Origin: Nitrospirota bacterium
Lineage (GTDB): Bacteria > Nitrospirota > UBA9217
DNA length: 64,000 nucleotides
Reading direction: 5' to 3'
Assembly: GCA_963818475.1 (NCBI GenBank)
Contig: CAWFSF010000006.1
Span: 928,001-992,000, forward strand
Shown: positions 34,510-53,312 of the stretch, piece by piece
Position numbering within the stretch: the first letter of the stretch is position 1
How the letters are laid out: every line of letters begins with the position of its first letter
Made by a program: the position numbers and the translations under genes
The notes under the pieces: model-generated
What the model was told of the DNA's origin: nothing
Seen by the model: only the letters and a program-made list of their open reading frames with translations
Database searches by the model: none

Positions 34510-35047
34510 CGGCCAAAGGGTTAAGAAATATAGCATGATCTTGGTGGTTGCCGGGTTTGCCTTGAGCGCCAGCATCTTGTCGGGCTTGTGCGATAAATCT
34601 TTTGCTCAAACTGCTGTGAAGCCGCCTGCCGGAGCTGCAGCTGCTGTGCCGGACAAGATACCCTTTCCACGGCCGGATTCGCACAAGGGGAACTGGATAG
34701 AATATCACGGCGCGTCAGCCGGTTTAGATCTCAACGCAGGGGAGTCGACGTGCCTCACCTGCCACGAGCGGAATGATTGCATCTCGTGCCATAACACGCG
34801 GCCACCGCGGGACCATACGCAGACCTGGCGCACGCTGAGCCATGGTTTCATGGCAGAAGGGAACAGGGAACGCTGTTTCACGTGCCACAGGCAGGATTTC
34901 TGCGTGCGCTGCCATAACGAGACAGCGCCTCGCTCCCACACTGCCGGGTGGCTGGGGGGAGCGAACCTGCACTGCACCGTGTGTCATTTCAACGGCACTT
35001 TGCCTGGCGACGGCTGCGGTGTATGCCATAAAAAGCCGCCGCATTGA
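34499..35047 (+). CDS. Hexaheme cytochrome c (start may be 34535)
   Basis: CLTCH, CISCH, CFTCH, CVRCH, CTVCH, CGVCH; signal peptide. Confidence 0.88.
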   Translation: MIFSGQRVKKYSMILVVAGFALSASILSGLCDKSFAQTAVKPPAGAAAAVPDKIPFPRPDSHKGNWIEYHGASAGLDLNAGESTCLTCHERNDCISCHNTRPPRDHTQTWRTLSHGFMAEGNRERCFTCHRQDFCVRCHNETAPRSHTAGWLGGANLHCTVCHFNGTLPGDGCGVCHKKPPH

Positions 35048-35099
35048 TAATCGCGAGCTTGATGCTAACGCAGGCAGCGCGCATTTAAGGAGTGTATGC

Positions 35100-36674
35100 A
35101 TGATTAAGCCGCTATCTCGACGTCTTGTTGCTTTATTCATATGTGCGGTGACGGTTGTCGGCTGCAGTTCGAGTCCGGGGCCCGATACGATCTCCTCCGG
35201 GTCTGGCCAGAGCCAGTGCACAACCTGTCATGCTCCGGGCAGTGCGATCGACCCGCTGACGACGAACAGCACCGGGACCTTTGGCAAACATGTTGCTCAT
35301 GTAACCGGCATGGGTTTCGCCTGTGAAACGTGCCATTTCAACTATACGAATCTCAGCACCCATGCGAACGGAACGCTGGACACGACGAGCCCCGCTGTTC
35401 TCGTTGTTTATTTCGACACGTCTAACCCCACGGGGGGCTGGAACAATGCCGCGGGAACTTGCTCTTCGTTAAACTGCCATGGTACTGATGCCCTCGACTG
35501 GTACGGAACGAGTGCGGCTAATTATCAGAGCTGCACCTCGTGCCATTCCTATGCGCTCGGTGCCAGGCGCATTGTTACCGGCACAAGCGGCGATTTCCGC
35601 GCCAATCCCGCTATCGTATCCAATCATGTCACGACGACCGGAGATCCTGCTCCTGCCCAGTGCAAGGTCTGTCACGATCTGTCTGCGCATACATCCGGGA
35701 CCGTACTTCTGCTGAATTCTGACGGCGGCGCAAGTATTGTTTACAATGCGGCAGCGCCGGCAAGCCTTGAGCCGTTCTGTTTGAGCTGTCACGATACGGG
35801 TGGCGCTGCATCGACCTTTGCAGCAGGAGGGTCGTCTCTCAAGCCGTTTAACGATAATAACACCCTGGGGAGCGTGCCGAATGTTGCCGGCAACAAGATC
35901 CAATCGTATTGGGCCGGCACTAACAACCGTCACAAGACATTCGGGTTGACCTGCGCGGGGACCGGAGCAGCAATAACGGGATGCCACGGCAATAGCGGGA
36001 AGATCAATATGCATGGTTCGGTTTCAAAAGGACTTTTGACGCAGAACCTGACCTTGGGAGTGGTCTCGGCGGTTTCCACTACCGTGCCCTATGACTATGA
36101 TTACAAGCTCTGTTTTGATTGCCATGCCAATTTTCTGGCAGTCTCTCCGCAGGTGGTTCTGGGCTACAAAAAAGGCGGCAATTACGACGTCACTGGGGTG
36201 GTCCCGCTTACTTCGTACTCGACGTCTACAACGACGATCCAATCGTTGTTCCGGGACCAGTATGTCGACAGTTCGCCCGGCGTACCGTTTTACAATGACT
36301 CGATCCCTCTACTGGAACCCTATGCGTATCTGCCGCTTCATAGCTATCACCTGCTCAGTGTCGTGACCAGCACCATGTTCATACCGGATGCAAATTGGAT
36401 GACGTGGAAATACCGCGGTGACGCCTCGCAGGCAGGCAGGATAACCTGCGTGACGTGCCATAATGTCCATGGCACGAACGGCCTTTCAGCCCGGAGCACC
36501 TTTGATGAGTTCGGGATCGCGAGCGCGGTATCGGGACCGGACCAGTACAGCACCATGCCCTTGAATAATTATAACGATGCCACGGTCATGGTGTCCTATC
36601 CCATGAACTGCGCTGTTGATTGTCATTATATGGCAGGCCAGACCTTTTATTGGAACACTCCTGCTAATGAGTAA
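35100..36674 (+). CDS. Multiheme lipoprotein cytochrome c (CxxCH/CxxxxCH type)
   Basis: Lipobox VVGC; seven CxxCH plus CSSLNCH, CAVDCH and a long-spaced CAGTGAAITGCH; RBS AAGGAG. Confidence 0.88.
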   Translation: MIKPLSRRLVALFICAVTVVGCSSSPGPDTISSGSGQSQCTTCHAPGSAIDPLTTNSTGTFGKHVAHVTGMGFACETCHFNYTNLSTHANGTLDTTSPAVLVVYFDTSNPTGGWNNAAGTCSSLNCHGTDALDWYGTSAANYQSCTSCHSYALGARRIVTGTSGDFRANPAIVSNHVTTTGDPAPAQCKVCHDLSAHTSGTVLLLNSDGGASIVYNAAAPASLEPFCLSCHDTGGAASTFAAGGSSLKPFNDNNTLGSVPNVAGNKIQSYWAGTNNRHKTFGLTCAGTGAAITGCHGNSGKINMHGSVSKGLLTQNLTLGVVSAVSTTVPYDYDYKLCFDCHANFLAVSPQVVLGYKKGGNYDVTGVVPLTSYSTSTTTIQSLFRDQYVDSSPGVPFYNDSIPLLEPYAYLPLHSYHLLSVVTSTMFIPDANWMTWKYRGDASQAGRITCVTCHNVHGTNGLSARSTFDEFGIASAVSGPDQYSTMPLNNYNDATVMVSYPMNCAVDCHYMAGQTFYWNTPANE

Positions 36675-38249: not shown

Positions 38250-39642
38250 ATGAGCAAGGTTTGGTACAATTTTTTCGAATGCAATGCCGCTTCGCGAGAT
38301 ATCCTTAGAAAGGATGTCATTGAATATCTCGTGCAGTCGGGCATAGAGATGCTCGAACTTGATCATGATAATCAGTGTGGAATTGGACTTCTTTTTTTTC
38401 ATGAGTTCTCGGATCGGCTGTGTAAATTCATAGGAGATGTCAGCCGGAACGGCATCAGGAGGGTGCTCTGCGCTCGCTTATGCCCGGTCCGCGTTAGAGA
38501 GCGATAATCCCTGGAAATTGCTGCAAGCAGGCGTTTCCGATGTCATTGCTCTCGATTCCTCAGTCGATATCTCGGAAAAGATAAGCACGCGCCTTGAACG
38601 CTGGATCGCAGTAGAGCATCTGATCGATAGCCCCGCGGTCTGCGAATCCCTTATCGGACAAAGCCCGGCATGGCGGTCGGTATTGCGGCAAGTTGTTGAA
38701 GTCGCGCACTTTACCGATTCAGCGGTATTGATCACCGGGGAAACCGGAACCGGCAAGGAGCTTGCTGCGCGTCTGATCCACACCGTCGATCCCAGGAAGG
38801 ACAAGGGCGACCTCGTCATTCTTGACTGTACGACCATTGTCCCGGAATTGTCCGGCAGCGAGTTCTTCGGCCACGAACGCGGCGCCTTCACGGGCGCCGT
38901 CGCATCGCGCGACGGCGCCTTTGCGATGGCAAATAACGGGACATTGTTCCTTGATGAGGTGGGAGAGTTACCTCTTAAGCTGCAGGCGCAGTTGCTTCGG
39001 GTAGTGCAGGAAAAGACATTCAAGCGCGTTGGAGGGAATGCCTGGCATTCCACGAACTTCAGGCTCGTTTGTGCAACAAACAAGGACTTGACGAAGGAGG
39101 TTCAACGCGGTGAGTTCCGCAGCGACCTGTATTACCGAATCGCCAACTGGACCTGCACGCTGCCGCCGCTGCGGGACCGGAGCGAGGATATCCTTCCTCT
39201 GGCCCGTCATTTTATAAGCGAACTGACCACTGGGAAAGATATGCCCGAACTGGACAAACTCGTTCGTGAATGCCTGCTCGTGCGAACGTATCCCGGCAAT
39301 GTGAGGGACCTGAAACAGCTTATTTCCAGGATCATGTGCAGATATACGGGAAAGGGGATGATCACCGTGGGAGACATCCCCGAGGAAGAACGGCCGCATG
39401 GAGCGATCAGCTCTGCTACCTGGTGCGACGGCCAAATGGAAAATACCATCCGCCAGGCATTGCTCCAGAATGTAGGGCTGAGAGAGATCCGCGGCGTCGT
39501 GGAAAAAACCGCCATTGATATGGCCATCAATGAGGCTGACGGCAATCTGCAGCGCGCGGCCAAAAAACTGGGCGTGACCGATCGTGCGTTGCAGCTGAGG
39601 CGTGCAGCGGATCGCTCCCGACTGGAAACGGGGACAAACTGA
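38250..39642 (+). CDS. sigma-54-dependent transcriptional activator (bEBP), frameshift near 38469
   Basis: ITGETGTGKEL, SEFFGHERGAFTGA, LFLDEVGEL, FRSDLYYR, YPGNVRDL, C-terminal HTH; atypical N-terminal domain. Confidence 0.92.
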
Positions 39643-39692
39643 TGCTGCGCGACACATCAGGCGGAGTGGCGAAAGCCGTTGCGGACCTGTTG

Positions 39693-40463
39693 TTATCGTT
39701 GGATACGCGCCGGATGTCTTGGGTGAGAACCTGCGATCAGACGCATGATATTGCCGCCGAGGACATTGTCTTCATCCGATCTCGACAATTTCAGTGCATA
39801 TATCTTCTCCATTTCAACTTCGGGATGGAGCCAGGGGCCGTCGGTTCCGAACAATATCTTATGTGGCCCGGCCTGATAAACTGCTGCTTTAAGCTGATCA
39901 AAGAACCTTACGCCTGACGTATCGGTAATAATATTCGGATATCTTGACAAAAGTTCAATGAACATTCTCTGCACTCTTGAATCGTCATTAAATGTCCCGA
40001 GATGGGGGATGATGAAGGTCACGTCCGGATACTCGGAGGCCAAAGTTGGAATGATGGCTACTTCTCCCATGATGTCATACAGCACGGGTAGCGACAGCGC
40101 CCGGGCAGTCTCGCAGACTTCTCTTGTTATGACGGCGTCACGGCGGTGAACCTTGATGCCGCAAAATCCGTATTCTACGACAGTTTCCTTTACCATCCGG
40201 TGTATTCTTCCCCTGTCGCGAAACGCATGAACGAATGCAAAGCCGTAGAATCGGACAGGATCCCGCGCAATAATGCCCGCGACCTTCCTGTTCGCGGTCT
40301 GATAGTCCGAATGGAAAGGCGAGAAGAGGATGGTTCGGGCGATGCCGGCTTCTGATGCGCGCTGCAGATACCGCTCAAGCGGCAAATTTAATTGTCCTGG
40401 ATCTGTAAAATCCGCTCCAGTGCCGGCATGGCAGTGGGAATCAATGATTAGTGTCGGTTCCAT
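39693..40463 (-). CDS. Amidohydrolase_2 family metal-dependent hydrolase
   Basis: IIDSHCHAG, GIKVH, FIIPHLG, DTSG, KILFGTDGPW. Confidence 0.88.
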   Translation of the reverse strand: MEPTLIIDSHCHAGTGADFTDPGQLNLPLERYLQRASEAGIARTILFSPFHSDYQTANRKVAGIIARDPVRFYGFAFVHAFRDRGRIHRMVKETVVEYGFCGIKVHRRDAVITREVCETARALSLPVLYDIMGEVAIIPTLASEYPDVTFIIPHLGTFNDDSRVQRMFIELLSRYPNIITDTSGVRFFDQLKAAVYQAGPHKILFGTDGPWLHPEVEMEKIYALKLSRSDEDNVLGGNIMRLIAGSHPRHPARIQR

Positions 40464-40492
40464 AGAAAACGGGCGCTATCCTTCTGCGGTCG

Positions 40493-40793
40493 TCCCTGAA
40501 TGGAGGTCCCGCTTCGGTCCTGATACCTCTCTTCCAATTGAGAGCGCCGCGCAGGGAACATGATCGCAGGCCGGTCGGGAGCAGGAATGGCGGTGTCGCT
40601 AATAACGGCGACATCCGCCGCGAGCATCTCTGCGTTATCGTTCAGAAAAGAGCGCAAATTGGGGCTGCCGATCGCTTCCTCACCCTCAAAAATACATCTG
40701 ATGTTGACCGGGAGCCGACCGGATCGTCCGGAGATACGACTCGATCGCCTTTACGTGGCAGAACAATTGTCCCTTGTCGTCTGATGAACCACG
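40493..40793 (-). pseudogene. Internal fragment of an M20 dipeptidase
   Basis: RGSSDDKGQ, FEGEEAIGSP, ADVAVISDT, GPKRDLHSG in shifting frames; both ends missing. Confidence 0.8.
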
Positions 40794-40819
40794 TCTGTAA
40801 AGGTAATTATCATGATACT

Positions 40820-42592
40820 TCATGCGAGTATCTGCTTTGCGTGTGAGTACGAATTCCCGATCCTGCTTCCGTATTTTTCATACTGACCGAAGCCGTTGTA
40901 GTACTTGGCAAATTCCGGCCACTTATGCTCACGGAGATGTTTGATGAGATATCCTTTCTTCGGTGCTTTCTTTTGCTTGCAGAAGTCAAAGAAGCCGAGA
41001 ACATGAGCCCGTTCACTGGCCTGGAAGGCATCATACATCGCGCGCGGAGATGAGTATCCGATCAACCGATAGTTGGCAACCAATATCTGCGGGCCGCCGA
41101 TGCTTATACATCGTAAGGCAATATCTTCACCGGCAAGCCTTGACGCGAGGGATAGGACCCTATATTCGAGTGCTTGATTACCGTGAAATGCCTTGAACGC
41201 TTCGGTTACGTTTTCCCTGAACTGGTGATTATGCCAGCTCTTGCCTGACATCCCATTATGCCCCCAGTGCCGGAAATACTGATTGTAGGTATTCTGATTG
41301 GATTTCCCCCACAACTTATAGAATAAGTGGTTTTCAAATCTGATGATTGCCTTGCCAGTTGTATGGCTTCGGCCTCCGCTTTCGATCTGCCAAACCGCGA
41401 GAGCGGTCTCAGCTTCGATCCTAAGCTCGCTTGCCGCTGCCCGCATTAATCCCCCAAGGCGATTGTATGTTCTTGCCAGGCTTTTGCGGACTGAGGTCCA
41501 TTTCGGATTGATGGTTACCGAAGTACCGGGCTTTAAAGGCGAGGCCTTTAATCGAGAAGAATCTTTATAAAAAGAAGCTTGTTGGTTGCTCTGTTCTGAA
41601 TCCAGCTCTAAAAGCCCTGTATCTTCGAATTGCGAACCAGTCGCTTGATCTGCAAGCTCTTCCCAGGTTTCAGGTTCTTTGAAATCTTTATGGTCGGAGA
41701 ATTCCATGCCGGTGTATCCGGGGGTGATGCTGCTTTCCTGATCCTCAAAATATTCAAATGACTCGAAATCTTCAGACGACTCAGGGTAAGTCTCAAATTC
41801 CTTTGCAGTCGCCCTTGCCCGATTCCGCCAGGAATCCGGGATCGGGTTCCCGAGTCCTATCTTATATCCGAGTCCGCCGTCTTTCAGGCGTAGATTAGTA
41901 ACAGCCCAGTGGCCTACGTGATACCAGATGTCCGGCCCGGGACAATTCTCACGGGTACTGGCTGCCTGACGGTGAGCGAAGATGTGCGTCAGCCCGATCT
42001 TCTTTATAAGGTGTTTGACAAGGAAACGACCCGCCTCGATCTGCGCCTGTGACAGCTTGTGGCAGCCGTACTTGCCTGCCTCCCAGCATTTTCCCCTTAC
42101 ATTGGGAAAGTTTCCGGCAAATTCGACAGCCACGCTTTTTCGATTAAATCCATTCGATGCCCAGAGAAGGGCGGATACGGGATGCAGTTGGAGTATTCTG
42201 CCATTTGGCAGAATGGCATAATGCGCCGTAACTTGGTTATATCGATCAGGGTTGTTGCCCCGGCTGAATGCCATCTGATGCAACACCAAAGCCTTCACCG
42301 TGCTTGGATCACGGCGGCCTTTGCGCCTGTCTTTACGAGCGACATTCGTGCGGTCCTCTATCCGAAGCCCGCTCGTCCCGACGACTTCCTGCTCCGTATC
42401 CGGCAATTCAAGAACATCCAATTCGAAATTGTCTTCAAAGTCTTCCTGGTTCATTTTGGTGTCAGGCATTTCACTGTCTTCTGATTCGAATAAATCCTCA
42501 AAGTCTTTCTGATCATCATCGGCAAGCTCGAGCGTGTCTTCGGATTCTTCGTATTCAAAAGGCTCTTCTTCTATCTTCGGTCTATAACTCAT
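40820..42592 (-). CDS. Acidic-leader protein with Amidase_2 and DUF3380-type N-acetylmuramidase domains
   Basis: LVLHQ, AHYAI, VAVEFAG, AHRQ..CPG; AVWQIESGG, IRFENHLF, GGPQIL..NY, FAKYYNG. Confidence 0.82.
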   Translation of the reverse strand: MSYRPKIEEEPFEYEESEDTLELADDDQKDFEDLFESEDSEMPDTKMNQEDFEDNFELDVLELPDTEQEVVGTSGLRIEDRTNVARKDRRKGRRDPSTVKALVLHQMAFSRGNNPDRYNQVTAHYAILPNGRILQLHPVSALLWASNGFNRKSVAVEFAGNFPNVRGKCWEAGKYGCHKLSQAQIEAGRFLVKHLIKKIGLTHIFAHRQAASTRENCPGPDIWYHVGHWAVTNLRLKDGGLGYKIGLGNPIPDSWRNRARATAKEFETYPESSEDFESFEYFEDQESSITPGYTGMEFSDHKDFKEPETWEELADQATGSQFEDTGLLELDSEQSNQQASFYKDSSRLKASPLKPGTSVTINPKWTSVRKSLARTYNRLGGLMRAAASELRIEAETALAVWQIESGGRSHTTGKAIIRFENHLFYKLWGKSNQNTYNQYFRHWGHNGMSGKSWHNHQFRENVTEAFKAFHGNQALEYRVLSLASRLAGEDIALRCISIGGPQILVANYRLIGYSSPRAMYDAFQASERAHVLGFFDFCKQKKAPKKGYLIKHLREHKWPEFAKYYNGFGQYEKYGSRIGNSYSHAKQILA

Positions 42593-42607
42593 AAGCGGCC
42601 TCCCTGT

Positions 42608-42856
42608 TCATTGCGTACGAGAAAGTGCACATAGAGCGATATCTTGCTGCGGCCATTGCTCCGCAGCTTGTCCATCTAAACGGAATCCCATGATTTCCCG
42701 CCGGAACTACCTGATCGGTCTCGACAAGCTAGATGTCGGTATTTGGATCATCGATCCTGATGGAGGCCGCGCCTCCGCGTTCACCTGACTCACTTCCAGA
42801 ACAGCAGATGCAGAACTAAGCTTGCCCTCATTTGACGTGATAGAAATAGTAGCCAT
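42608..42856 (-). pseudogene. Degenerate short ORF remnant
   Basis: RBS AGGAG and ATG at 42856; protein-like segment GGAASIRIDDPNTDI*LVETDQV interrupted by a stop and frameshifts. Confidence 0.4.
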
Positions 42857-42931
42857 CGTATTTCTCCTGTAAGTTGGTGTGGTTCGAAAAAATTCACTCC
42901 AACGCTATTTTTCTTACTCGCAAAGAGGTCT

Positions 42932-43921
42932 TCAATTAATTATTCGTTCGTAAAGCCCCGCAACTTGTTTCCCATTGCTACATTTCAGCCAAAGCCTTCT
43001 GACGAAGTGGATTTTCTGCCTTGTCCCCAGGTGAGTGACCGGGCTCGATCCCGCGGCTGGAAGCTTCCCCCCTAAGTGCACAGGATTCGAATCATTCAGT
43101 TTCACTACAAATTCGTAAGCTGGAAATAGATCCACATATCCAAGAAAACCAATATCAACGTAGTTGCGCGCTACTCGCTTGATAAAGAAGGTGCCCTCGT
43201 AATCGATTTTGGCGTTCAATAGAAACTGCCCGACTTTCTTAATAGTCTTTGATGTTGGACATGCCGGCCCTTGCGATCCTTTGACACGAATCATTATCTC
43301 CTTCGCCGGTGTGACGCCCAAAAACGAGAAATTCATCGGTGACGTAGACGAGGTTCCTCTACACAAAACGAGGCCAGTCATGCAATCAACTTGAATGGTA
43401 GGGTCAATGCGATGATTTTGATAGATGATGCGAGGCTTATCCAGGTCCATCTTTGTCTCAGAATGCATTCTTGATGACGCATTAATATCCGGGCTCAATG
43501 ATCGTTGATCGGTAAGACCGCAAAAAAATTGTGTGACGAACATAGTCTTTCCCGCCATGCTAGGGTCCAGCTTTACGATAGAGTCAGGAACCTTCCTGGT
43601 CAGGCCTGAAACATCTCTCGGAATGAATGCATTCAACCAAACTGTGACGGTGCGAATACGATTTTCGCATGTCGGCAGCGCATCAGTCACTTCATCGAGT
43701 GCAGACTCATATTCCCAATCTGAGGTTTCGGTGCCACGAAATAGCGACTCGTCTTGCAGTTGATCATCCGATTCAGAATCAAACGACCAGCTTTCCTCTT
43801 CGCCGTATTCTGGGAAGATGTCCTGTGTCTCCTCCGAGAATTCGTCGAACGACTCAAGCGTATCTTCGAACTCGAAGTTGGTCTCCAAGGGTTCGATGTC
43901 AAATTTATATACGTTTTTCAC
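42932..43921 (-). CDS. Acidic-leader protein of unknown function (C-domain possibly DUF3238-like)
   Basis: GTG start after GGAGG; ~80-aa D/E/F-rich leader; WLNAFIP, TDQR, SSRMHSE, FPAYE. Confidence 0.7.
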   Translation of the reverse strand: MKNVYKFDIEPLETNFEFEDTLESFDEFSEETQDIFPEYGEEESWSFDSESDDQLQDESLFRGTETSDWEYESALDEVTDALPTCENRIRTVTVWLNAFIPRDVSGLTRKVPDSIVKLDPSMAGKTMFVTQFFCGLTDQRSLSPDINASSRMHSETKMDLDKPRIIYQNHRIDPTIQVDCMTGLVLCRGTSSTSPMNFSFLGVTPAKEIMIRVKGSQGPACPTSKTIKKVGQFLLNAKIDYEGTFFIKRVARNYVDIGFLGYVDLFPAYEFVVKLNDSNPVHLGGKLPAAGSSPVTHLGTRQKIHFVRRLWLKCSNGKQVAGLYERIIN

Positions 43922-44066
43922 ACCCACCTCCAAAATTTCGCTCAACTCATTCTTTTAGATGCCGCAGCGGTTTTCGTGCGTTACGGCCTTGCCGCCTGAT
44001 TCACCCTGCGAAAGTGAGGCGCGCACCACTCCTCGGGTTACGCCCGACCCCCTCTGTTCGAATAGT

Positions 44067-45605
44067 TCAGCGGGCCTTCTTCCCGACAGCCATCTCAAGC
44101 GCCCGAATCCCTTCAGCGCGGAGGTGGTCGACAAACGATCGAAAAGCATGACGTGTACCGTGGATTTGGATGGGACCTTCGGTGACCGGGTCTTTAACAT
44201 CGCGCAATCGAGCGAAGAGCCCATCGGCAATCCCCTGCTTAACCGTGACATCGACCTCCTGGTACGCGATCTCGCCCAACTGGCCCCACCGCCACTCGAG
44301 TGGTGATGCGCCACCTCCCCCGGGCAAGGGAACATTTGCGCCTGCTGAGCGATCTTCCTTGGGCACGAACCCCCTGGCAGCAAAAACAGGTGTTCCAAGA
44401 GCTTGCTTGACAGCATCAGTCCGCTGCGAAAGTGAGAGAGAACGACCTGCCAGCTTGCGGCCGACGCCCCGAACTCGCTCGAGGTCGCGAAGCGACGTGA
44501 TGACAGCGGCAGTCGCCATCATCTTGGTAGTGGATCCCGCGGCGCTTGTTCCGAGATGAGAGTCACCGACCGCGGTCCATCGGTAGCCGCCCTGAATTCT
44601 CTTCCCATCGTGATCCATGTCCGAGACGACGCGAAGGCCTCGGTTGTCTAGATTGTGCAACGCCAGGCTTACGATGTCGCCCAAGGAGAAAGTCCTTACC
44701 GCCTCCCCGCCGAGTTTTGAAGCGCGCTCCTTGATCTTCGCCTTGGTGAGCCACGACAACCACCATGCTAATGGAGGGAGCCGCTGACGCTCGTCCAGAC
44801 GGTCGTACATAAACTTGGCCATGTAACGGAGGAAGCGATCGGTCGAGTCGGGTATATGGCGCTCGTACCACTCTCGAATTGACGCGCGAGGCGTGCGTAC
44901 GTGGCCGGCAGCGAACATGTCTGTGAGGAAGTGATGGCCGAAAGCCTCCTTTGTCAGCGCTCTTCGCCACGCGCTCTGGCTAGCCTGCTCGCCGGCTTGA
45001 AGCGAATCGGCGATAGCTTTCGAATGCCATAAGACGTAGGCCTCCCAGGCACTGCCGCCAGCGGAGAAATGGGACAGGTTGCGGCTGGCGAGGACGTAGT
45101 ACCGCTCACGAACAGCGTCTTTGACCTTGTCTGGCACCTGCGGCTCCGGTACCTTTGGCTTGTGTCTCTTCAGATCGAGTGCCTGCCATCGGACCCAGGC
45201 GATCATGGCTCTCCCGGTTGGTGTGCGGGTGAGGTCCTGCATCTCGTCGTAGGTCCCGAAGTAGTCCCCCGCAAGGGCCACCACCTCTCCGAAGCTCAAG
45301 CGCTGGCCGCGTTCGCCGTAGACAATCGTTGTTGGTTCTCGACCCGAGGCCAAGTCACCAATGTCGCGATGCTCCGATCCGATGAAGTGTTGAACAGCAT
45401 CCGCTGGCTCTAGTGAGAGCTGAGAGGCCCCGTTCTCGAATCCCTCGTTGAGGCCCAGATCGAATAGCTCGTCAAGGAACTGCGCTTGGCCGGCCTCTTC
45501 CTCCCATTCCCAGTCGGCCAGCTCGGTATCAAACGTTTCGGACTCTTCATCGAATTCCGAATTAGTCTCAAACGGCTCAGACTCGATATTAAGCTCGTAC
45601 CTCAT
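44067..45605 (-). CDS. Acidic-leader protein with Zn-dependent phospholipase C-like domain
   Basis: EHRDIGD, FGEVVALAGDYF, NLSHF, EAFGHHFLTDMFAAGHVRTPR, LHNLDNRGL resemble Legionella/Pseudomonas PC-PLC motifs. Confidence 0.72.
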   Translation of the reverse strand: MRYELNIESEPFETNSEFDEESETFDTELADWEWEEEAGQAQFLDELFDLGLNEGFENGASQLSLEPADAVQHFIGSEHRDIGDLASGREPTTIVYGERGQRLSFGEVVALAGDYFGTYDEMQDLTRTPTGRAMIAWVRWQALDLKRHKPKVPEPQVPDKVKDAVRERYYVLASRNLSHFSAGGSAWEAYVLWHSKAIADSLQAGEQASQSAWRRALTKEAFGHHFLTDMFAAGHVRTPRASIREWYERHIPDSTDRFLRYMAKFMYDRLDERQRLPPLAWWLSWLTKAKIKERASKLGGEAVRTFSLGDIVSLALHNLDNRGLRVVSDMDHDGKRIQGGYRWTAVGDSHLGTSAAGSTTKMMATAAVITSLRDLERVRGVGRKLAGRSLSLSQRTDAVKQALGTPVFAARGFVPKEDRSAGANVPLPGGGGASPLEWRWGQLGEIAYQEVDVTVKQGIADGLFARLRDVKDPVTEGPIQIHGTRHAFRSFVDHLRAEGIRALEMAVGKKAR

Positions 45606-46701
45606 GACTTACCTCCAGGATTTTTGCCTTCGCGCTCCTGTTTCGTGCGATGCGCGCGAGCGCGTCCACCGCAAGGTCGATATCGCCTTGCCTGAGGAGT
45701 GCCGTAATGAGAAAACTGATGCGTGGGCGATGGCCATTGCGCCCGCGATGCAGTACCGTCCGAATCCCACATTGCAGCAGGCGGTCGTAAAGCGTTTCCG
45801 CGTCAAGCCCGGATGCAGGCACGAATGTCTGGACCGGGAACAAACCGCCGCTGGTTAAGAAACCGGCATGTGCCATGCGACTGCGGAAACGACGCACCAG
45901 ATGGGCGAGACGCAATCGCAGCTGGTCGCCATACTTCAGGTTTGCAACAAGAGCATGCTCAGCGGCATGGACAACTGCAAGGGAAGGCGGGCTGCAATGA
46001 ACCCTCGTTTCGCTCTTCTCTTCGAACCAGCCCACCATCCTGCTGCTTCCTGATAGGGCGGCTGCAGGAACGCCGAATCCCTTGGCCATCGAACTCGCCA
46101 TCAGCACATGAGGGTTCTGTGCGTTATTGCTCCACTGGAGTATGCCGCCGCCACCCATGCCATAGGGGGTTTTTTTTTCCGGCGAATGCCCCAATATCCC
46201 GAGTGATTGTGTGTCGTCCAGGATCAGCAGCCCGCCCGCGTCCCGGGCAAACGCCGCATATTCTGAAACAGGCGCGGGCTTTCCGCAGGCCGGACAAAAG
46301 CCGTCGGACAGGATCACCGGCCGCCTGCGGTGATTCGAATCATTTTTCATTACTGCCTTAAGGGCATCAGGGCGATAGTGAGCAAAAGTCCTGACGGGAA
46401 CACCGCGCGATGCGGCGCGTTCCACTCCCCACCGGGCGATCGGGTAAACACCCGCGTCCATGTAAATGGCGCTGTCATACTTGTCGAGAATGCCGAAAAG
46501 GTCCCAGAACAAATGCAGGGTGGAGGGAGCAAGTACTGCCCGCTCGCAACCCTGCAGCTCCGCCAATTTCCGGGCAATCGCGCGTGCTTCCCGGGGCTCT
46601 TGCAATGCCGCAGGGGCGCCAAACGTCAGCGTCTCCCACGGACGAAGGCTGCGGCTCGGGTGATGCATGCCGAGATAGAGCGCAGAACTGAAATCCATCA
46701 T
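45589..46701 (-). CDS. PLP-dependent class I/II aminotransferase-fold enzyme (BioF/AONS-like, divergent)
   Basis: DFSSALYLG, FAH, LSDGF, LILDDTQSLGILG, GGG, SMAKGFG (Schiff-base Lys), PVQ. Confidence 0.8.
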   Translation of the reverse strand: MMDFSSALYLGMHHPSRSLRPWETLTFGAPAALQEPREARAIARKLAELQGCERAVLAPSTLHLFWDLFGILDKYDSAIYMDAGVYPIARWGVERAASRGVPVRTFAHYRPDALKAVMKNDSNHRRRPVILSDGFCPACGKPAPVSEYAAFARDAGGLLILDDTQSLGILGHSPEKKTPYGMGGGGILQWSNNAQNPHVLMASSMAKGFGVPAAALSGSSRMVGWFEEKSETRVHCSPPSLAVVHAAEHALVANLKYGDQLRLRLAHLVRRFRSRMAHAGFLTSGGLFPVQTFVPASGLDAETLYDRLLQCGIRTVLHRGRNGHRPRISFLITALLRQGDIDLAVDALARIARNRSAKAKILEVSHEVRA

Positions 46702-46711
46702 GACGTGCTGC

Positions 46712-48193
46712 CTATCTGCGCTGCAACTGCATCTCCAAACGCCTGCTCAAATGGACCGACGGTTTAGTTGCATCCACCTTGCCGTTCACGACGGGATTAG
46801 CCAGGTCAACGCCAGTGGCGATCCGATAGGCGTGCGCATAGCTCTGGATCTCGCTTCTCCAGTACAGTGCCCAGTTCCTCGCTTCCTCGGCGTCGTTTAC
46901 GTTGTTCCAGTCGCCGTAACGGATGGACAGGAGTATCTGCTCGCCGAATACGCCCAGGTCGCTGAAATGCATGGCGGAGACATCCGTCCATCCCTGAATG
47001 GTCTTTAACGCGTCAACTGCGGACATCCAGCCTTCACGGTAGGGCATCATCGGTCTGCGGCCGAGGAACTCATGCATCTCAGGCCTCGACAGCAGCCATT
47101 GCTGCATCAGCATCTCCACGCGGGCCTGGAAAGGCAGGTCCCCAAACTGATTGTGTGCGCCCTCCGCAAGGAGCATATGCACTTCCTTAAGCGCGTTCAG
47201 GAGCGGGAACGGGTCCGGGACCATCAGCTTGTTGTTTTCTTCCTTGAAGAAGATCATGCATCTGTTTAGGAGGTTGTGAAACGCTTCGATGAACTTCGAG
47301 CGGCTGTCGGCGGTTTGCAATACCGGAACCGCCTTGCCTATGAGCGTAAGCCCGTACTCATGATCGTACTCATAGGCGCGGCGCTGCATGGACAGGCGGT
47401 TGTGCTCGTCTTGAATGTAACCCCAGAGCAGGTTGCTGAGAGGACGAAGCGGACTGAGCGTGAGGTTTGCCAGAGGGTCCCTGGACGACATCTTCTTGTT
47501 CTGGAACCGCAGGCTGATCGCATTGATCGCCTGGGCAAGCATTCCCTCTTCGTGCCAGTATGACCAGATCAACTCGATCATACACGGGTTATTCACCCGG
47601 TTATCGATGACAAGATTACTGTCGTCGCAAAAGATGCTTTTAAGGCCTGTCTGCAGATTTAAGTTGTTCAGAATTCTTTTGAGATAGGGAAGTTGAGGAT
47701 TGCCATCAAAGTATTGATCCACCAGGTTCTTCAGCTTGTCCATCAGGTCTGCTGGAGTATCTATCTCCCACCCGAGCCGCTTCTTTTCGTTCTCAAAATC
47801 GCCGTCAAGTCGCACGGTATCCAGTGCATTTGGCTGCTCTCTCGTGATGTCGATTCTTACGGAGGAGCACGCATACAGCATCAGGAAAAGCTCTGTTGCG
47901 GCCTTAAGTGAATCGTAAGAATGTACTCCTTTAAAGCACCTGTCCGTGTCACTTTTTTTATCAAGCCCTGCCTCGGTGATTTTTTTACTGATGTTCGCAT
48001 CGACATTCTCTTGTTTAAACTCCTGACATGCGGCTGACTCAGGAGCGGGCCTCTCAGGACATATGGCGCATTTTAAAAAATCTTGATAGTTACTAAAACT
48101 GATGGTTTTTGTCCGGAGTCTTATTGCAGTGTTCAGTGCTTGCCCGGGTGTTTCGTATCTTTTAGATTCAAGGCTAAAAATGTTGTCAGTCAT
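46712..48193 (-). CDS. Hypothetical protein, 493 aa, Trp-rich C-terminal domain
   Basis: Long ORF with RBS AAGGAGG in operon; IELIWSYWHEEGML, RRAYEYDHEYGL, EGAHNQFGDLP; no recognised family. Confidence 0.85.
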   Translation of the reverse strand: MTDNIFSLESKRYETPGQALNTAIRLRTKTISFSNYQDFLKCAICPERPAPESAACQEFKQENVDANISKKITEAGLDKKSDTDRCFKGVHSYDSLKAATELFLMLYACSSVRIDITREQPNALDTVRLDGDFENEKKRLGWEIDTPADLMDKLKNLVDQYFDGNPQLPYLKRILNNLNLQTGLKSIFCDDSNLVIDNRVNNPCMIELIWSYWHEEGMLAQAINAISLRFQNKKMSSRDPLANLTLSPLRPLSNLLWGYIQDEHNRLSMQRRAYEYDHEYGLTLIGKAVPVLQTADSRSKFIEAFHNLLNRCMIFFKEENNKLMVPDPFPLLNALKEVHMLLAEGAHNQFGDLPFQARVEMLMQQWLLSRPEMHEFLGRRPMMPYREGWMSAVDALKTIQGWTDVSAMHFSDLGVFGEQILLSIRYGDWNNVNDAEEARNWALYWRSEIQSYAHAYRIATGVDLANPVVNGKVDATKPSVHLSRRLEMQLQRR

Positions 48194-48208
48194 GACATCC
48201 TCCTTTTG

Positions 48209-49531
48209 CTATATTCCCGTTGAGTGTAGTTCTCTTAACGGCCGTTCACTCGACCGCTTCGAGCAGTTCGCTGAAGTATCGAGCGCGTTTTTCAGCGCCC
48301 ATTGTTTGAGCAACTCTGCCAGTATGCCGCTTTCCTTTTCCGGCGTTATCCTTCCATCACCCCGTGCCTGCCCGATTGCCGCGAAAACCAGGGACGGCTT
48401 CTCTGTCAGCATTTGTTCTGGTGAAGATCGCCATGACTCATAGAGTTCCTGCAACTGCTGAGGCCGGTGTTTACCGCACCTGAGTACTTCCATTACCGAG
48501 CTGCCGCGTAAAGACTTCGGCCTGTGGTTCACGAGCAATGTCACAAAACCCGGCATGGTGGAAAGCAGGCTCGAGATCGCCCGCCTCTTTTCCTCGGGAA
48601 GACCCGCAGCCGGATACAGGGTTTCCCATAGTTGAGATAGCCTTGCCCACTGCGGGTGAGGGTAAAGCGCATTCCCGATTGCGCAGCTAAGTTTCACGCG
48701 TATCCACGGAAACGGGTGCGGGTCATCGAGTGTGAACCTGAAAACAAAGGCGCGGGGGAGGCTGACCACGCTTATGAGTCCGAGCGTGGAAGCAATGCCT
48801 ATTTTCGCAATTGCCCAGAAGTCTGCAAGGATCTCGGAAATCCAGCGATCCCAGAGGCTCCAGGCGATGGCTTGATCGCCGCCGCTCTTCTGCAGACCCT
48901 GAAGTACCTCCCGTACGGACTTTACCAGGTCGAGCAGCGCTGAGCCCTGATGTCCTACCTCGTGTATCAGTGAAGAGGCGATCCCGCTGCCGACCATCCG
49001 CTCGCGGGGGACACGGATGACGGCAACAGGGTTTTGAGCGCCGCCCGGCAACCTCGTTCGTGCCCGCCGGATCGCCGCGCCGTGGCCCCGGTCAAGATAG
49101 CATACGACCGGAGGAGGCTCATAATAATGGCCTTCGATCCGGAGCGCGTCGGCTGAAACAACATCGAGGCCGGAAAGCCAGATCCCTGTTTCCTGTTCGC
49201 TCCGCTGATTCAGCACATCCGCAAAGATGTCGAATTGAGATAAGACATTATTGAATCTCATCCGCAGAATCGTGAATCTTCGCTGCGCTTCCGTCGCAGA
49301 AATACGCTCAACCCCGCCTTGTTCGAGCCAATGGTAGTAGCTGTGGATCATCTCCCGTAGCTGCGCATTTCCGGTCGCAATAGACTTTTCAATTGCATAG
49401 AGCGCGTTCGGTGAAATAGCCGCTGCCGGGACCATGGGCATGGTGAGAGAAAATGACCTCACCCTGTCCAGCCGCGCCAACAGCGCACGTGCTTCCTGCA
49501 AGAGGAAGGAATGAGCTACGCTGCCGTTCAT
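48209..49531 (-). CDS. Putative HEXXH zinc metalloprotease of unknown family
   Basis: SLIHEVGHQG followed by WISEILADFW and DPHP; start overlaps upstream stop (ATGA). Confidence 0.7.
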   Translation of the reverse strand: MNGSVAHSFLLQEARALLARLDRVRSFSLTMPMVPAAAISPNALYAIEKSIATGNAQLREMIHSYYHWLEQGGVERISATEAQRRFTILRMRFNNVLSQFDIFADVLNQRSEQETGIWLSGLDVVSADALRIEGHYYEPPPVVCYLDRGHGAAIRRARTRLPGGAQNPVAVIRVPRERMVGSGIASSLIHEVGHQGSALLDLVKSVREVLQGLQKSGGDQAIAWSLWDRWISEILADFWAIAKIGIASTLGLISVVSLPRAFVFRFTLDDPHPFPWIRVKLSCAIGNALYPHPQWARLSQLWETLYPAAGLPEEKRRAISSLLSTMPGFVTLLVNHRPKSLRGSSVMEVLRCGKHRPQQLQELYESWRSSPEQMLTEKPSLVFAAIGQARGDGRITPEKESGILAELLKQWALKNALDTSANCSKRSSERPLRELHSTGI

Positions 49532-50217
49532 GCATAGATACCATAGAGAATTATTTTATTGCCGCGGCGAAGCCATCGGCCGCTGCTCCGGGGGCGGCGC
49601 CCGCCTGCGCCCGAAGAACCATAGGGACGCTGCATTTTGCTGATCAGGCCTGGCGCGTGCCGCTTTGCGGCCTCAATTACCGCCGTTTTTGCAGCATTGA
49701 CCGGGGGCACCGAAGGCGACGCAGCGGCTGCGTTCTGGGCTGCAGAGCCGGCAAGGCGGACAACCCTGCGGGCAACTTCGAATTCTTGATCTTCCTGGCT
49801 CAGTCCCTCGAGTTCGAGGCCGAACATGCTCCCTGCCGACGATGCGAGCTTACTACCGATTGCAGTGCCGATGCCTGGCGCAACCATTGATCCGAGAGCG
49901 CCTCCGGCAATCGGAAGCGCTTTTTTGATAACGCCCTTGAGCATGCCTCCCAGGGGAGAAGCGACTCTTTTTATACCTCTTCCAATTTTCCTGAATACCC
50001 CTCCCAGAAACTGGTCGAGTTCCGCTTCGTCTGAAATTTCAAGAAGCTGAGAGGCCAGCTCCATCTCTTCGCCTTCACTGAATGGACTCTCCTGGTCGCC
50101 GACTTCGCCGGAGTCGAATTCAAAATCTTCGCCTTGCAACCCTTCTTCTGGATCAAACTCACCTTCGAAGCTTTCTTCAGGTTCAAATTCCGCCTGTGTA
50201 CGATCTAAATCGTGCAT
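49528..50217 (-). CDS. 229-aa protein: acidic N-terminus, cationic amphipathic helix, Gly-zipper, basic C-tail
   Basis: MHDLDRTQAEFE..ELDQFLGGVFRKIGRGIKR..GGALGSMVAPGIGTAIG..FGLELEGLSQEDQEFE..SGRWLRRGNKIILYG; RBS AAGGAGGAG. Confidence 0.88.
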   Translation of the reverse strand: MHDLDRTQAEFEPEESFEGEFDPEEGLQGEDFEFDSGEVGDQESPFSEGEEMELASQLLEISDEAELDQFLGGVFRKIGRGIKRVASPLGGMLKGVIKKALPIAGGALGSMVAPGIGTAIGSKLASSAGSMFGLELEGLSQEDQEFEVARRVVRLAGSAAQNAAAASPSVPPVNAAKTAVIEAAKRHAPGLISKMQRPYGSSGAGGRRPRSSGRWLRRGNKIILYGIYA

Positions 50218-50268
50218 GATTTTCTCCTCCTTGTATAAGTATGTGTAGTAGACGCTATGGAGGGAATT

Positions 50269-50285
50269 AGCAAGATACATGCCGG
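50269..50285 (-). promoter_or_regulatory. sigma-54 (-24/-12) promoter
   Basis: Minus strand CCGGCATGTATCTTGCT = GG-N10-GC, close to consensus TGGCAC-N5-TTGC, ~50 nt before ATG 50217. Confidence 0.8.
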
Positions 50286-50316
50286 GGTTAACATATGGAA
50301 ATTGCATATGAGGAGG

Positions 50317-50372
50317 CGAAGTTCGTTTCGGAATTGGCCAGACTTGAGAGGAATGTGGCGAAGCCGTCTTCG
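50317..50372. promoter_or_regulatory. Twin palindromes CGAA-N6-TTCG, candidate enhancer sites
   Basis: GGCGAAGTTCGTTTCGG and GGCGAAGCCGTCTTCGG, 42 bp apart, upstream of the -24 box. Confidence 0.6.
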
Positions 50373-50441
50373 GGATCGAAAGCAAGCGGATGGCATACGG
50401 TAACGTCGGATGCTGCTCTCTCAAGCCGTGCGCGCTTTATT

Positions 50442-50898: not shown

Positions 50899-52236
50899 TC
50901 AGCCGTCGGGCGGTTCGCAATAGCATGTTTTGTTTCTGCCGCCGTTCTTTGCCGTATACAACCCCTTGTCAGCCTTGTCGAGCAGCTCGTTCACGCTCTG
51001 AGCGTCCCGGGGATAGGTGCAGATGCCCCCGCTGATCGTGATCCTGAGAGGGGTGTCTGCGATACCCGTGAATTCCGTGCTCTCGATCTTTTTCCGGATG
51101 CGCTCAGCCACCTCCCGCTCCGCACCGTTGCTGTCCGGCATGAGCATGGCGAACTCCTCGCCGCCGTAACGCGCCACGGTGTCCATCTGCCGTGCATTCG
51201 CCTTCAGGATGTCGGACACCGCCCTGAGCAGGGTGTTGCCTTTCTCATGGCCGTAGGTATCGTTCACCTTCTTGAACTGATCGAGATCGAAGAGGATGAC
51301 GCCGAAGTTCGAATTGCTCCGCCTGGCCCGGGACTCCTCCTTTTTCAGCTCGTCCATGAAGTGCGCGTAATTGTTCAGACCGGTGAGGCGGTCCGTGATG
51401 GAACCCTCGTGAAGTTTCCGGTTGGCCTCGTGAAGCTGTTCGGTCGACCGCTTCATGTCCGCGACCATCTGGTTGAACGATGCTGCCAGTTCTCCTATCT
51501 CGTCCCGGGTATCGATCTCCACGCGGCTATCAAGGTCGCCTTGCGCGACGCGGTCTGCTGCGTGCTTCAGCAGTATGAGAGGACGGGAGATGGTGCCGGA
51601 GAAGAGAAAACTCAACAGGGCCGCTATCACCAGCGCTGCCGCGATGCCGATCAGGCTGATCCTCAGGAGGACCGTCCGGAATGCCATCCACCCTGAATCG
51701 AGTTGGGAGTGGAGTTTTTCAATCGAGGCTATCAGAGGTTCGTTCGAATAGACGATCTGGCCGTATCCGGCGACGTGTTTCTCTGATCTGATCGTAAAAG
51801 AAATGCGCTCCCCCTGCTCGGTTTTTTCCGCAATGATAGGTTGTTTCTTCAGCCGCGCAAGGCTCACATCGAGCTTTGTTCCAAAAGCTTTATTCTGCCG
51901 GGTCCCATCGGTCAGGATCATGCCCTTCGAGTCGGCCACGATAAACGAAATGAACGGCAATCCGATCTTCATATCGTTGATGATGCGGTTGACCCTGCTT
52001 ATATCGGTTTGATAAACCGGAATAAAGAGATGCCGACTCAGATACTGGGCGGTATTGAACAGCGTTTTCCCATGGTTCTCCCGGAAAAAGACCGCGCTCG
52101 TGTCTTTGACGTTCTTTTTGAGCTCCGCACCTTTTTTAACACTAATGAAGGCGAAGGATGCGACCAGGATCAGCATGATCGCGACGCTGCTGATGCCGAA
52201 GAAGAGGGCGTATTTTTTGTTGATGTTGAACTTCAT
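50899..52236 (-). CDS. Membrane HAMP-GGDEF diguanylate cyclase
   Basis: Two TM helices, HAMP, TDRLTGL, DLDQFKKVNDTYGH, ARYGGEEF. Confidence 0.93.
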   Translation of the reverse strand: MKFNINKKYALFFGISSVAIMLILVASFAFISVKKGAELKKNVKDTSAVFFRENHGKTLFNTAQYLSRHLFIPVYQTDISRVNRIINDMKIGLPFISFIVADSKGMILTDGTRQNKAFGTKLDVSLARLKKQPIIAEKTEQGERISFTIRSEKHVAGYGQIVYSNEPLIASIEKLHSQLDSGWMAFRTVLLRISLIGIAAALVIAALLSFLFSGTISRPLILLKHAADRVAQGDLDSRVEIDTRDEIGELAASFNQMVADMKRSTEQLHEANRKLHEGSITDRLTGLNNYAHFMDELKKEESRARRSNSNFGVILFDLDQFKKVNDTYGHEKGNTLLRAVSDILKANARQMDTVARYGGEEFAMLMPDSNGAEREVAERIRKKIESTEFTGIADTPLRITISGGICTYPRDAQSVNELLDKADKGLYTAKNGGRNKTCYCEPPDG

Positions 52237-52239
52237 GAT

Positions 52240-53169
52240 TTAGTCCTCGTCTGAAAGCAGCTGTTTAAGATCTGCGAGAGAGTTCCGGTCTTCCTGCGTC
52301 AGTCGTTCAAATTTTGTCATCTTCAGCGCCGTGGCCAACGCAGTCCGTCCCTGACCGTTCCCGGACATATCGACCAGCGTTATCTCAACGGCTTCCCTGA
52401 GCACGCGCGGAAAAGAGGGGTGAAACGAGCCGAGCAGGCGAATGACCGGCGCGGTACGGTGAATGACCCGCAACTGTGACCGTTCCTTCGGGCGAAGCTC
52501 GTCCCAGTCGCTGCTGCTGAAAACGCCGGCGTCCGCCTGGTTCCTGATGACCCGGAATGCCTGGTTGATCGCCTCGCCTGCAAACGCATACCGGACCGCA
52601 TCTTTGGGCGCATCTTCGTCCGTTGATCCACGCAAGGATAATTTGTTCTTTTTCAGTTCGGCTTTTGCCATGGCGTATCCCGCTGTGGACGAAGGCGTCC
52701 CGAAAACAACGGTCTTTCCCCGCAGATCGCTCAGCTCTTGCAGGGAGCTTTGTTTCCGTACGAAAAATACCGCTGAGTGTTCACGGGCCGCTCCCTGTAA
52801 AGCGACGACCGCGGGCACGAGTTCATGAGGTTCCATTTCCACGATCGGGAAAGCGGAGGTGATGATGAAATCCAGCGTTCCTTCTTTGATACGGGCGCGC
52901 AACTGGTCCAGGTCCTTTGCGACGAAGACGGTCACGTCCTTTATCCCGGACCGCCTGAGACGACGTTCCAAATATTCCACGAAAGGATCGAAATCCTGCA
53001 GGAGCTGTCCCGGATTCGCGCCGATAAGCCCGATCCTGAATTGCGTTACCGTATCTTCTGCTGAAGCCGCAGGACCGTAGAAGCAGGCGACTAATGCGAT
53101 AAGAAAAGCAAGGATTGTTCTTTTAAGAGTTGCCAGGTTGCGAGGTGCAATTCCCTTTGTGCCCTTCAT
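52240..53169 (-). CDS. PhnD-like periplasmic substrate-binding protein
   Basis: Signal peptide, LSDLRGKTVVFGTPSSTAGY, ADAG; 3 bp from the cyclase start. Confidence 0.82.
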   Translation of the reverse strand: MKGTKGIAPRNLATLKRTILAFLIALVACFYGPAASAEDTVTQFRIGLIGANPGQLLQDFDPFVEYLERRLRRSGIKDVTVFVAKDLDQLRARIKEGTLDFIITSAFPIVEMEPHELVPAVVALQGAAREHSAVFFVRKQSSLQELSDLRGKTVVFGTPSSTAGYAMAKAELKKNKLSLRGSTDEDAPKDAVRYAFAGEAINQAFRVIRNQADAGVFSSSDWDELRPKERSQLRVIHRTAPVIRLLGSFHPSFPRVLREAVEITLVDMSGNGQGRTALATALKMTKFERLTQEDRNSLADLKQLLSDED

Positions 53170-53312
53170 GCGGAATACTATACCATTAAATATAAGTTGC
53201 GACAATAAGGATATGGGATCCAGCATGATTCTCTGGACACGGAACCCTTCACTCTCACAAAAAGTAACAATCGATAGAGCTATGATAGAAACAATAAGGA
53301 GGTCTGTCTGTC

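Follow-up and report, generated by a model that had tools for sequence, protein, structure and literature searches.

What is the function of a run of genes that lies between positions 38,250 and 50,372 of a 64,000-nucleotide stretch of the genome of a Nitrospirota bacterium (assembly GCA_963818475.1, contig CAWFSF010000006.1, positions 928,001 to 992,000 of the forward strand; this whole stretch is hereafter called the window)? An earlier reading of the sequence, the original prediction, had taken it for an undescribed system in which core proteins of no known family accompany lytic cargo with acidic leaders in place of export signals. The run is real: it extends over 39693-50217 on the minus strand and contains every item then listed, a 'PLC-like' label given to one product aside. 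We designate its genes g1 to g8 from the operon head onward and, together with the convergent gene for a bacterial enhancer-binding protein (bEBP), refer to them as the cassette. Comparison with related loci leads us to conclude, with a probability of about 0.95, that the cassette is a genuine, conserved system whose wall-lytic cargo can be exchanged. What this system does is more tentative, and the explanation that we prefer, a protease-gated, sigma-54-triggered module for lysis or release, is given a probability of about 0.4.

A conserved core and an exchangeable slot

One genome per species was surveyed, which yielded 404 stretches that encode a relative, and the best 80 of these were analysed as loci with at most 10 kb of flanking DNA each. 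Open reading frames (ORFs) in the loci were called mechanically, with maximal starts and with spurious ORFs in GC-rich genomes. The 80 loci span 10 phyla, and phmmer, with the window's proteins as queries, detected g3 in 80 of them, g2 in 78, g1 in 72, the bEBP in 61, g8 in 53, g4 in 46, and g7 in 4. Gene order is constant, g1(n)-g2-g3-(g4)-slot-(M20)-g8, facing the bEBP gene. A g1 gene is present in 68 of the 69 loci whose upstream sequence exceeds 2.5 kb, g2 adjoins g3 in 68 of these 69 loci, and the bEBP gene occurs in 47 of the 48 loci whose downstream sequence exceeds 9 kb, on the opposite strand in 46. The single exception to the core set (L050) is a remnant. The obligate set is g1 in one to three copies, g2, g3, and the bEBP. 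When the locus ORFs were clustered all against all, nothing else proved conserved apart from an M20 peptidase cluster (13 loci), and the cassette therefore contains no ATP-binding cassette (ABC), membrane fusion protein or outer-membrane protein exporter gene, no ATPase gene, and no tail-like gene.

The original prediction had anticipated that neighbourhood analysis would reveal a conserved core with variable acidic-leader cargo, and this is the pattern seen across the 80 loci. Of the core as then conceived, g1, g2, and g3 stand and the bEBP is to be added, but the cargo proved optional and the leaders have no positional motif in common. The core genes co-occur almost always, and the core proteins yielded no match to a secretion, phage, or biosynthetic system that is already characterised; neither outcome contradicts the view of the system as undescribed. 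Searches of full-text literature, which did not extend to the supplementary tables of PMC8213781 and PMC3162934 (these could list related genes), did not find a description of the cassette, nor is it described in the available portion of the text of the sigma-54 context survey (PMC3162934).

Several observations bear on how the cassette has spread. In a tree of g3 (80 rows, 10 phyla) the phylum label changes 22 times, compared with a minimum of 9 and a shuffled mean of 40. Forty genomes related to that of the window, 5 from its genus, 19 from its family, and 16 from its phylum, all proved to lack g3. The distribution is thus patchy, with transfer between phyla. In addition, g3 was found on 4 large plasmids or chromids. 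The carriers include nitrifiers, methanotrophs, methylotrophs, rhizobia, Acidobacteriota, myxobacteria, and anammox bacteria; among those in culture are Nitrosospira briensis, Cupriavidus respiraculi, Methylobacterium, Bradyrhizobium, and Archangium.

Cargo and its acidic-aromatic stretches

The slot, which lies between g3 or g4 and g8, has a median length of 2.2 kb and reaches up to 8 kb. To describe its content, 87 proteins (86 slot ORFs of at least 230 aa plus g5, with 34 shorter ORFs excluded) were scanned against Pfam. The most frequent families were PG_binding_1 (35), PG_binding_3 (16), OmpA (11), Peptidase_M20 (8), and Trypsin_2 (7), followed by VanY (5), Peptidase_M74 (5), Peptidase_M23 (4), Amidase_2 (4), CHAP (2), and GH25 (1). 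Judged from these family assignments, the cargo is overwhelmingly peptidoglycan-directed.

The window's copy carries three cargo genes. The product of g7 (40820-42592, minus strand; 590 aa) consists of an acidic leader, an Amidase_2 domain (Pfam, 1.2e-15), an acidic-aromatic linker, and a Muramidase domain (1.5e-28), with endolysin matches in PHROGs. The linker, at residues ~255-330, is a second acidic-aromatic stretch and joins the amidase and muramidase halves. This build, which resembles two fused leader-bearing cargo genes, recurs in g7-like proteins of the loci L059, L061, L069, and L072. The g5 product (44067-45605, minus strand; 512 aa) combines an acidic-aromatic leader with a His-rich toxin-like domain for which neither Pfam nor NCBIfam has a family, so that the earlier 'PLC-like' label is unconfirmed; sequence and profile searches against the PDB gave nothing credible for this family either. 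In 27 of 114 g5 homologues the same C-terminal domain stands behind an N-terminal DUF4157 (PF13699), which the consulted part of PMC8213781 describes as an N-terminal toxin marker associated with extracellular contractile injection systems (eCIS), and on this ground the domain of g5 is a swappable effector domain. PG_binding_1 is found on 5 of the 114 homologues, two of which match the leader only, at 87-90% identity. The g6 product (42932-43945, minus strand; 337 aa) has an acidic leader and a domain without family match, including in PHROGs.

Leaders were scored by a rule that calls for 30 residues with at least 9 D/E, at least 3 F/W/Y, and at most 1 K/R; both this test and the signal-peptide test below are home-made heuristics with flank ORFs as control. 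The rule was passed by 92 of 108 g1 sequences and 29 of 86 slot ORFs, compared with 16 of 277 flank ORFs, and 8 of these 16 flank passers were, on inspection, cargo or g1-like genes beside cassettes whose end lay beyond reach. Among the other cassette proteins, 0 of 76 g2, 1 of 81 g3, 0 of 44 g4, and 0 of 53 g8 sequences passed. In the window's 4.66-Mb genome a related rule was passed by exactly three ORFs, namely g1, g5, and g7, while g6 passes a looser acidic rule, so the acidic cargo leaders of the original prediction are borne out. A shared positional leader motif was considered and dropped, as a hidden Markov model (HMM) of the g1 N-terminus retrieves no cargo leaders. In g7 and in 8 of 32 leader-bearing ORFs, the acidic stretch precedes one that is rich in Arg/Lys; with this frequency, the notion of an acidic leader followed by an Arg-rich stretch was reduced to a side observation.

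By a crude hydrophobic-stretch test, a signal-peptide-like N-terminus was found in 0 of 86 slot ORFs, compared with 46 of 277 flank ORFs. The same kind of crude hydrophobicity test found none in g1 to g8, which agrees with the missing export signals noted earlier. None of the 34 small slot ORFs, most of which look spurious, has an export signal, and no exported immunity-like ORF was seen among them. Two loci contain similar small cytoplasmic ORFs inside their slots (L016:16327-16755 and L029:14063-14545; 142 and 160 aa) that appear HEAT-repeat-like by eye and could be immunity or adaptor proteins.

Proteins of the core

The products of g1, g2, and g3, like those of g5 and g6, have zero matches in Pfam, NCBIfam, and PADLOC. 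RefSeq and UniProt name the homologues of g1 and g2 'hypothetical protein' and, once, 'HEXXH motif-containing protein', and all named g3 homologues are likewise 'hypothetical protein'. For each of g1, g2, and g3, PDB sequence and profile searches returned nothing credible.

The g1 gene (49528-50217, minus strand) encodes 229 aa from an ATG that follows AAGGAGGA; the mechanically called ORF is longer and reaches a TTG at 50424. An alignment of 46 sequences displays conservation along the whole ~220 aa. A conserved MHD-type N-terminus leads into an acidic-aromatic third that ends in a conserved helix-like motif. This is followed by a cationic amphipathic stretch and a Gly/Ala zipper, after which a second acidic motif and an Ala/Pro-rich part precede the C-terminal tail, which is basic and conserved. 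The block net charges of the window's g1 are -26, +8, +1, -3, and +11, and its top amphipathic moment (0.80, residues 69-86) was matched by 0 of 500 shuffles. In PHROGs, the glycine-rich part weakly matches tape-measure segments (E = 4e-4). Of 63 loci whose upstream sequence exceeds 4 kb, 28 have one copy of g1, 31 have two, and three have three. One locus has an additional g1-like gene inside the cargo slot (L041:16174-16932), besides the g1 at the operon head.

The g2 product (48209-49531, minus strand; 440 aa) contains HEVGH, an instance of the HEXXH motif. In a 36-sequence alignment (50-62% identity) residues H190, E191, H194, E233, and D237 are invariant, and HEXXH with a downstream Glu ligand (ExxxD-like) is the pattern of gluzincin-type zinc metallopeptidases, which g2 fits; it is thus a putative zinc peptidase. 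The protein has a net charge of +10, and its family comprises 1,151 representative clusters at 50% identity. A relationship to DUF4157 was rejected, with an hhalign probability of 0.5% against DUF4157-toxins. Apparent g1-g2 and g2-g3 fusions were also seen, the latter (P0405) with a frameshift-like linker, and these may be read-through artefacts.

The g3 product (46712-48193, minus strand; 493 aa) belongs to no known family. Databases contain more than 4,795 homologues of it, at ~50% identity also across phyla; it has numerous invariant Trp, His, Glu, Arg, and Tyr residues and no hydrophobic segment, and it is single-copy in the window's genome. The ESM Atlas gave no usable match, PHROGs gave a single one (E = 0.0067), and g3 was not found in 50,697 phage records or in IMG/VR contigs. 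In many g3 homologues, 100-250 aa at the N-terminus form Ig-like or CarboxypepD_reg domains. Long g3-g4 fusion proteins exist in some organisms (P0406 and P0409), and g3 therefore probably works with g4. Two Dyadobacter proteins (P0407 and P0408; 884-886 aa) match g3 residues ~170-488 only, in a C-terminal part that follows 540 unrelated N-terminal residues; going by these alignments, the C-terminal two thirds of g3 is a separable domain in Bacteroidota.

Accessory enzymes

The original prediction had placed a BioF-like enzyme, an M20 relic, and an amidohydrolase in the operon. They are real, and enzymes of these kinds are frequent dispensable parts of the cassette and not cargo. The g4 product (45589-46701, minus strand; 370 aa) matches Aminotran_1_2 (Pfam, 1.2e-9), and its nearest NCBIfam model is bioF, at 55 bits versus a cut-off of 426. 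The lysine for pyridoxal phosphate (PLP) is conserved at 95% or more, and DDxQ occurs throughout instead of DDxH. These features characterise g4 as a divergent alpha-oxoamine-synthase-like PLP enzyme (BioF/Kbl fold) of a distinct predicted subfamily. The g8 product (39693-40463, minus strand; 256 aa) matches Amidohydro_2 (Pfam, 5.6e-18), a metal-dependent hydrolase family, with the ligands HxH, H, H, and D conserved. Of the 48 loci in which downstream sequence exceeds 9 kb, 29 have g4 and 39 have g8.

The M20 relic (40494-40811, minus strand) was confirmed by tblastn (E = 1.6e-18) as a frameshifted fragment that corresponds to approximately residues 113-234 of a ~480-aa dipeptidase in two frames. 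Intact M20 genes of the 13-locus cluster match NF006053 'dipeptidase' above its cut-off. A full-length M20 paralogue, ~35% identical to the cassette M20s, lies on the same contig ~6 kb before the window start (C6:920530-921894).

Control by sigma-54

A sigma-54 promoter had been proposed at the operon head, and a promoter-like 16-mer of the GG-N10-GC type, CGGCATGTATCTTGCT, with a score of 10/12, indeed occupies 50284-50269 of the minus strand and precedes the g1 ATG by ~50 nt. Of 68 loci, 48 have a like site within a 650-bp region about the place where the first g1 should start, compared with 0.043 expected per 650 bp, and a stricter sigma-54 pattern is found in 15 of the 68. The window's genome encodes rpoN (sigma-54). 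Four more sigma-54-type 16-mers with a score of 10/12 are present in the window, at 55244 (-), 35282 (+), 21088 (+), and 38751 (+).

The convergent gene (38250-39642, plus strand) matches Sigma54_activat (6.9e-59), AAA_lid_14, and, at its C-terminus, HTH_8 in Pfam, which bears out its assignment as a bEBP. It is frameshifted: seven homologues align in two frames with a break near 38468-38472, the first ~70 residues reading from the ATG at 38250 and the remainder in the frame 38437-39642. The break lies outside any long homopolymer and may reflect decay or an indel error in the assembly. An internal ATG at 38437 could yield a 401-aa bEBP that lacks half of the N-terminal domain.

How the cassette might work

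The features above can be assembled into the lysis or release module that we tentatively favour. A signal at the N-terminal domain of the bEBP would switch the operon on. The g1 product would be made as an inert pro-protein, its cationic amphipathic and glycine-zipper part being masked by the acidic third (-26), and the basic putative zinc peptidase g2 would remove the acidic pro-regions of g1 and perhaps of the cargo. Mature g1 would then permeabilise the cytoplasmic membrane by a holin-like logic, the wall hydrolases would gain access to murein, and the producer would lyse or leak, releasing a polymorphic lytic cargo that would probably act on neighbours.

A number of observations weigh against this explanation. 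The g1 product has no true transmembrane segment, with a top 19-residue Kyte-Doolittle mean of 1.32 and no window of at least 1.5. The likeness of the leaders, as far as their sequences go, is compositional only, and about two thirds of the slot ORFs fail the strict leader rule, the failing set including M20 genes and spurious ORFs. There is no slot ORF of at least 230 aa in 11 of 61 loci, and the gap is shorter than 1 kb in 5; cargo is therefore optional, and since such cassettes exist, the core functions without cargo. The extreme conservation of g3 is unexplained, as is the presence of a PLP enzyme, an amidohydrolase, and a dipeptidase in a lysis cassette. The lack of exported immunity-like ORFs is as compatible with self-lysis as it is with an attack on neighbours. 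Lastly, given the frameshift in its bEBP gene, the copy of the cassette in the window may be silent.

A bolder extension, which we consider improbable, is that g1, g2, and g3 together constitute a new release or delivery route for proteins of diderm bacteria, in which the low-complexity leaders would mark folded wall hydrolases and toxins for protease-gated passage through a membrane lesion built by g1, and g3 with its PLP partner would carry out a new step of chemistry or assembly that this passage requires.

Passage of cargo without lysis is an alternative that we regard as unlikely, and it takes several of the same observations differently. Here g1 to g3 would form a secretion or packaging route that reads the acidic-aromatic leaders, and folded cargo would leave an intact cell or enter a particle that is then released. 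An obligate, tightly coupled core would be expected of such a route, as would the confinement of leaders to the operon within the genome, and the toxin domain of g5 is paired elsewhere with another delivery marker. The ~50% identity of g3 across phyla is of the kind seen in constrained structural proteins, and the Ig-like and CarboxypepD_reg domains of its homologues are typical of surface or assembly proteins. However, the core includes no membrane-spanning protein, secretion ATPase, or outer-membrane component, and neither the optional cargo nor leaders without a common positional motif are easily reconciled with a dedicated exporter.

It is also conceivable, if doubtful, that the cassette serves a self-directed programme of autolysis or wall remodelling (programmed death, abortive infection, release of extracellular DNA or public goods, or differentiation) and has no role against others. 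This would employ the same genes as the lysis or release module under the same dedicated activator, it would account for the result that none of the 34 small slot ORFs is exported and immunity-like, and it would suit carriers such as non-predatory nitrifiers, methylotrophs, and rhizobia. A single hydrolase would be enough for self-lysis, however, whereas the cargo is polymorphic and exchanged, occupies a slot of ~0-8 kb, and draws on many enzyme classes, and this, like a toxin domain held in common with eCIS-type polymorphic toxins, is a hallmark of conflict systems. The zero matches in PADLOC likewise speak against it.

A further reading is biosynthesis of a modified peptide or small molecule, of the kind known for ribosomally synthesised and post-translationally modified peptides (RiPPs) or on a scaffold, with g1 as precursor or scaffold, g2 as leader peptidase, and g3, g4, g8, and M20 as tailoring enzymes, the wall hydrolases being accessory. 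In keeping with this, g1 stands first in the operon in one to three tandem copies with a highly conserved C-terminal tail, the cassette holds a peptidase and three conserved enzymes that appear from their residues to be active, g3 is at times fused to g4, and the core persists without cargo. Nevertheless, g1 is conserved over the whole 220 aa, far above the usual size of a precursor, no RiPP recognition element (RRE), radical S-adenosylmethionine (radical-SAM), cyclodehydratase, or other known maturase family was matched in Pfam or NCBIfam, g4 and M20 are absent from many loci, and leader-bearing wall hydrolases would be left unexplained, all of which makes this reading distinctly improbable.

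Finally, a satellite cargo island of a contractile injection system or type VI secretion system (T6SS) encoded elsewhere, which the fusion of the g5 domain to the eCIS marker DUF4157 (as characterised in the part of PMC8213781 consulted) and the weak tape-measure matches of g1 in PHROGs (E = 4e-4) might suggest, is already largely refuted and very hard to credit, given that the window's genome (91% complete) has no match to Phage_sheath_1 (PF04984) or VipB (PF05943), that PF13699 is unmatched there (the control genomes gave no match either), that g2 is unrelated to DUF4157, that the conserved clusters of the 80 loci include no tail-like genes, and that g3 is missing from the phage records and IMG/VR contigs.

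Comparison with known systems

Holin-endolysin cassettes and type 10 secretion systems consist of a holin with at least one transmembrane helix and of endolysins without signal peptides. The present cassette resembles them in that its signal-less hydrolases are of endolysin classes (Amidase_2, muramidase, GH25, M15/VanY, M23, CHAP, and PG_binding_1) and are encoded beside a small, abundant, putatively membrane-active protein, so that release would need permeabilisation. It differs in that g1 is a putative 220-aa pro-protein with an acidic third and no transmembrane helix, that a zinc-peptidase-like and a 470-aa partner are obligate, that control is exerted by sigma-54 and a bEBP, that the hydrolases bear acidic-aromatic leaders, and that phage records, IMG/VR, and the conserved clusters give the cassette no phage context.

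Like the proteins of polymorphic toxin systems, the cargo presents one kind of N-terminus, the acidic-aromatic one, ahead of many different domains. The closest parallel here is with the DUF4157/eCIS_core toxins (Geller et al. 2021, PMC8213781), which, in the portion of that study available to us, also have variable C-terminal domains behind a system-specific N-terminus and an associated HEXXH element, and among which the g5 domain itself is found behind DUF4157. In contrast with those toxins as described there, the cassette has no tail-like machinery, its HEXXH protein is separate and unrelated, its marker is a low-complexity acidic-aromatic stretch, and no adjacent exported immunity genes were seen.

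Protease-activated pore formers are known from bacterial gasdermin-protease pairs, and in the precursors of defensins and cathelicidins an anionic pro-piece masks a cationic part. The arrangement of g1, with its acidic block (-26), cationic amphipathic block (+8), and glycine zipper, and with a peptidase gene that overlaps its end, is reminiscent of both, but g1 has no sequence relation to either and the likeness is one of analogy alone.

Artilysins, in which an endolysin is fused by design to a polycationic peptide and thereby crosses the outer membrane, are described in the sections consulted of PMC4161244. The Arg/Lys-rich stretch between leader and wall hydrolase in 8 of 32 leader-bearing cargo ORFs and in g7 recalls that design, although the stretches of the cassette are natural, occur in the smaller part of these ORFs, and would be masked by an acidic one.

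Taken together, the machinery of the cassette is new, its core proteins being in no described family, while its general logic, by analogy with lysis cassettes and polymorphic toxins, has known parallels. The core proteins are large families in at least 10 phyla that are publicly unannotated, and one more orphan class of sigma-54 activators would gain a defined function. If release or delivery of wall-lytic enzymes is what the cassette accomplishes, it would have an unrecognised part in how members of soil and sediment communities compete, turn over, and lyse, and its cargo would amount to a natural collection of lysins that cross the outer membrane and have removable masks.

Layout and surroundings of the window's copy

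The first five genes of the operon are tightly packed, with a 4-nt overlap between g1 and g2, gaps of 15 nt between g2 and g3 and 10 nt between g3 and g4, and a 17-nt overlap between g4 and g5. The later gaps are wider, at 121 nt between g5 and g6, 339 nt between g6 and g7, and 356 nt between g7 and g8. GC content falls to 0.481 at 42001-44000, which covers g6 and the start of g7, compared with 0.595 at 44001-46000 (g4/g5), and this drop suggests that a portion of the cargo came in separately. The flanks, at 34842-36674 (plus strand) and 50899-53226 (minus strand), encode an MtrC-like multihaem cytochrome, PrmA, a HAMP-GGDEF protein, and a phosphonate-binding protein; as these are unrelated housekeeping and respiratory genes, the cassette is a sharply bounded insert.

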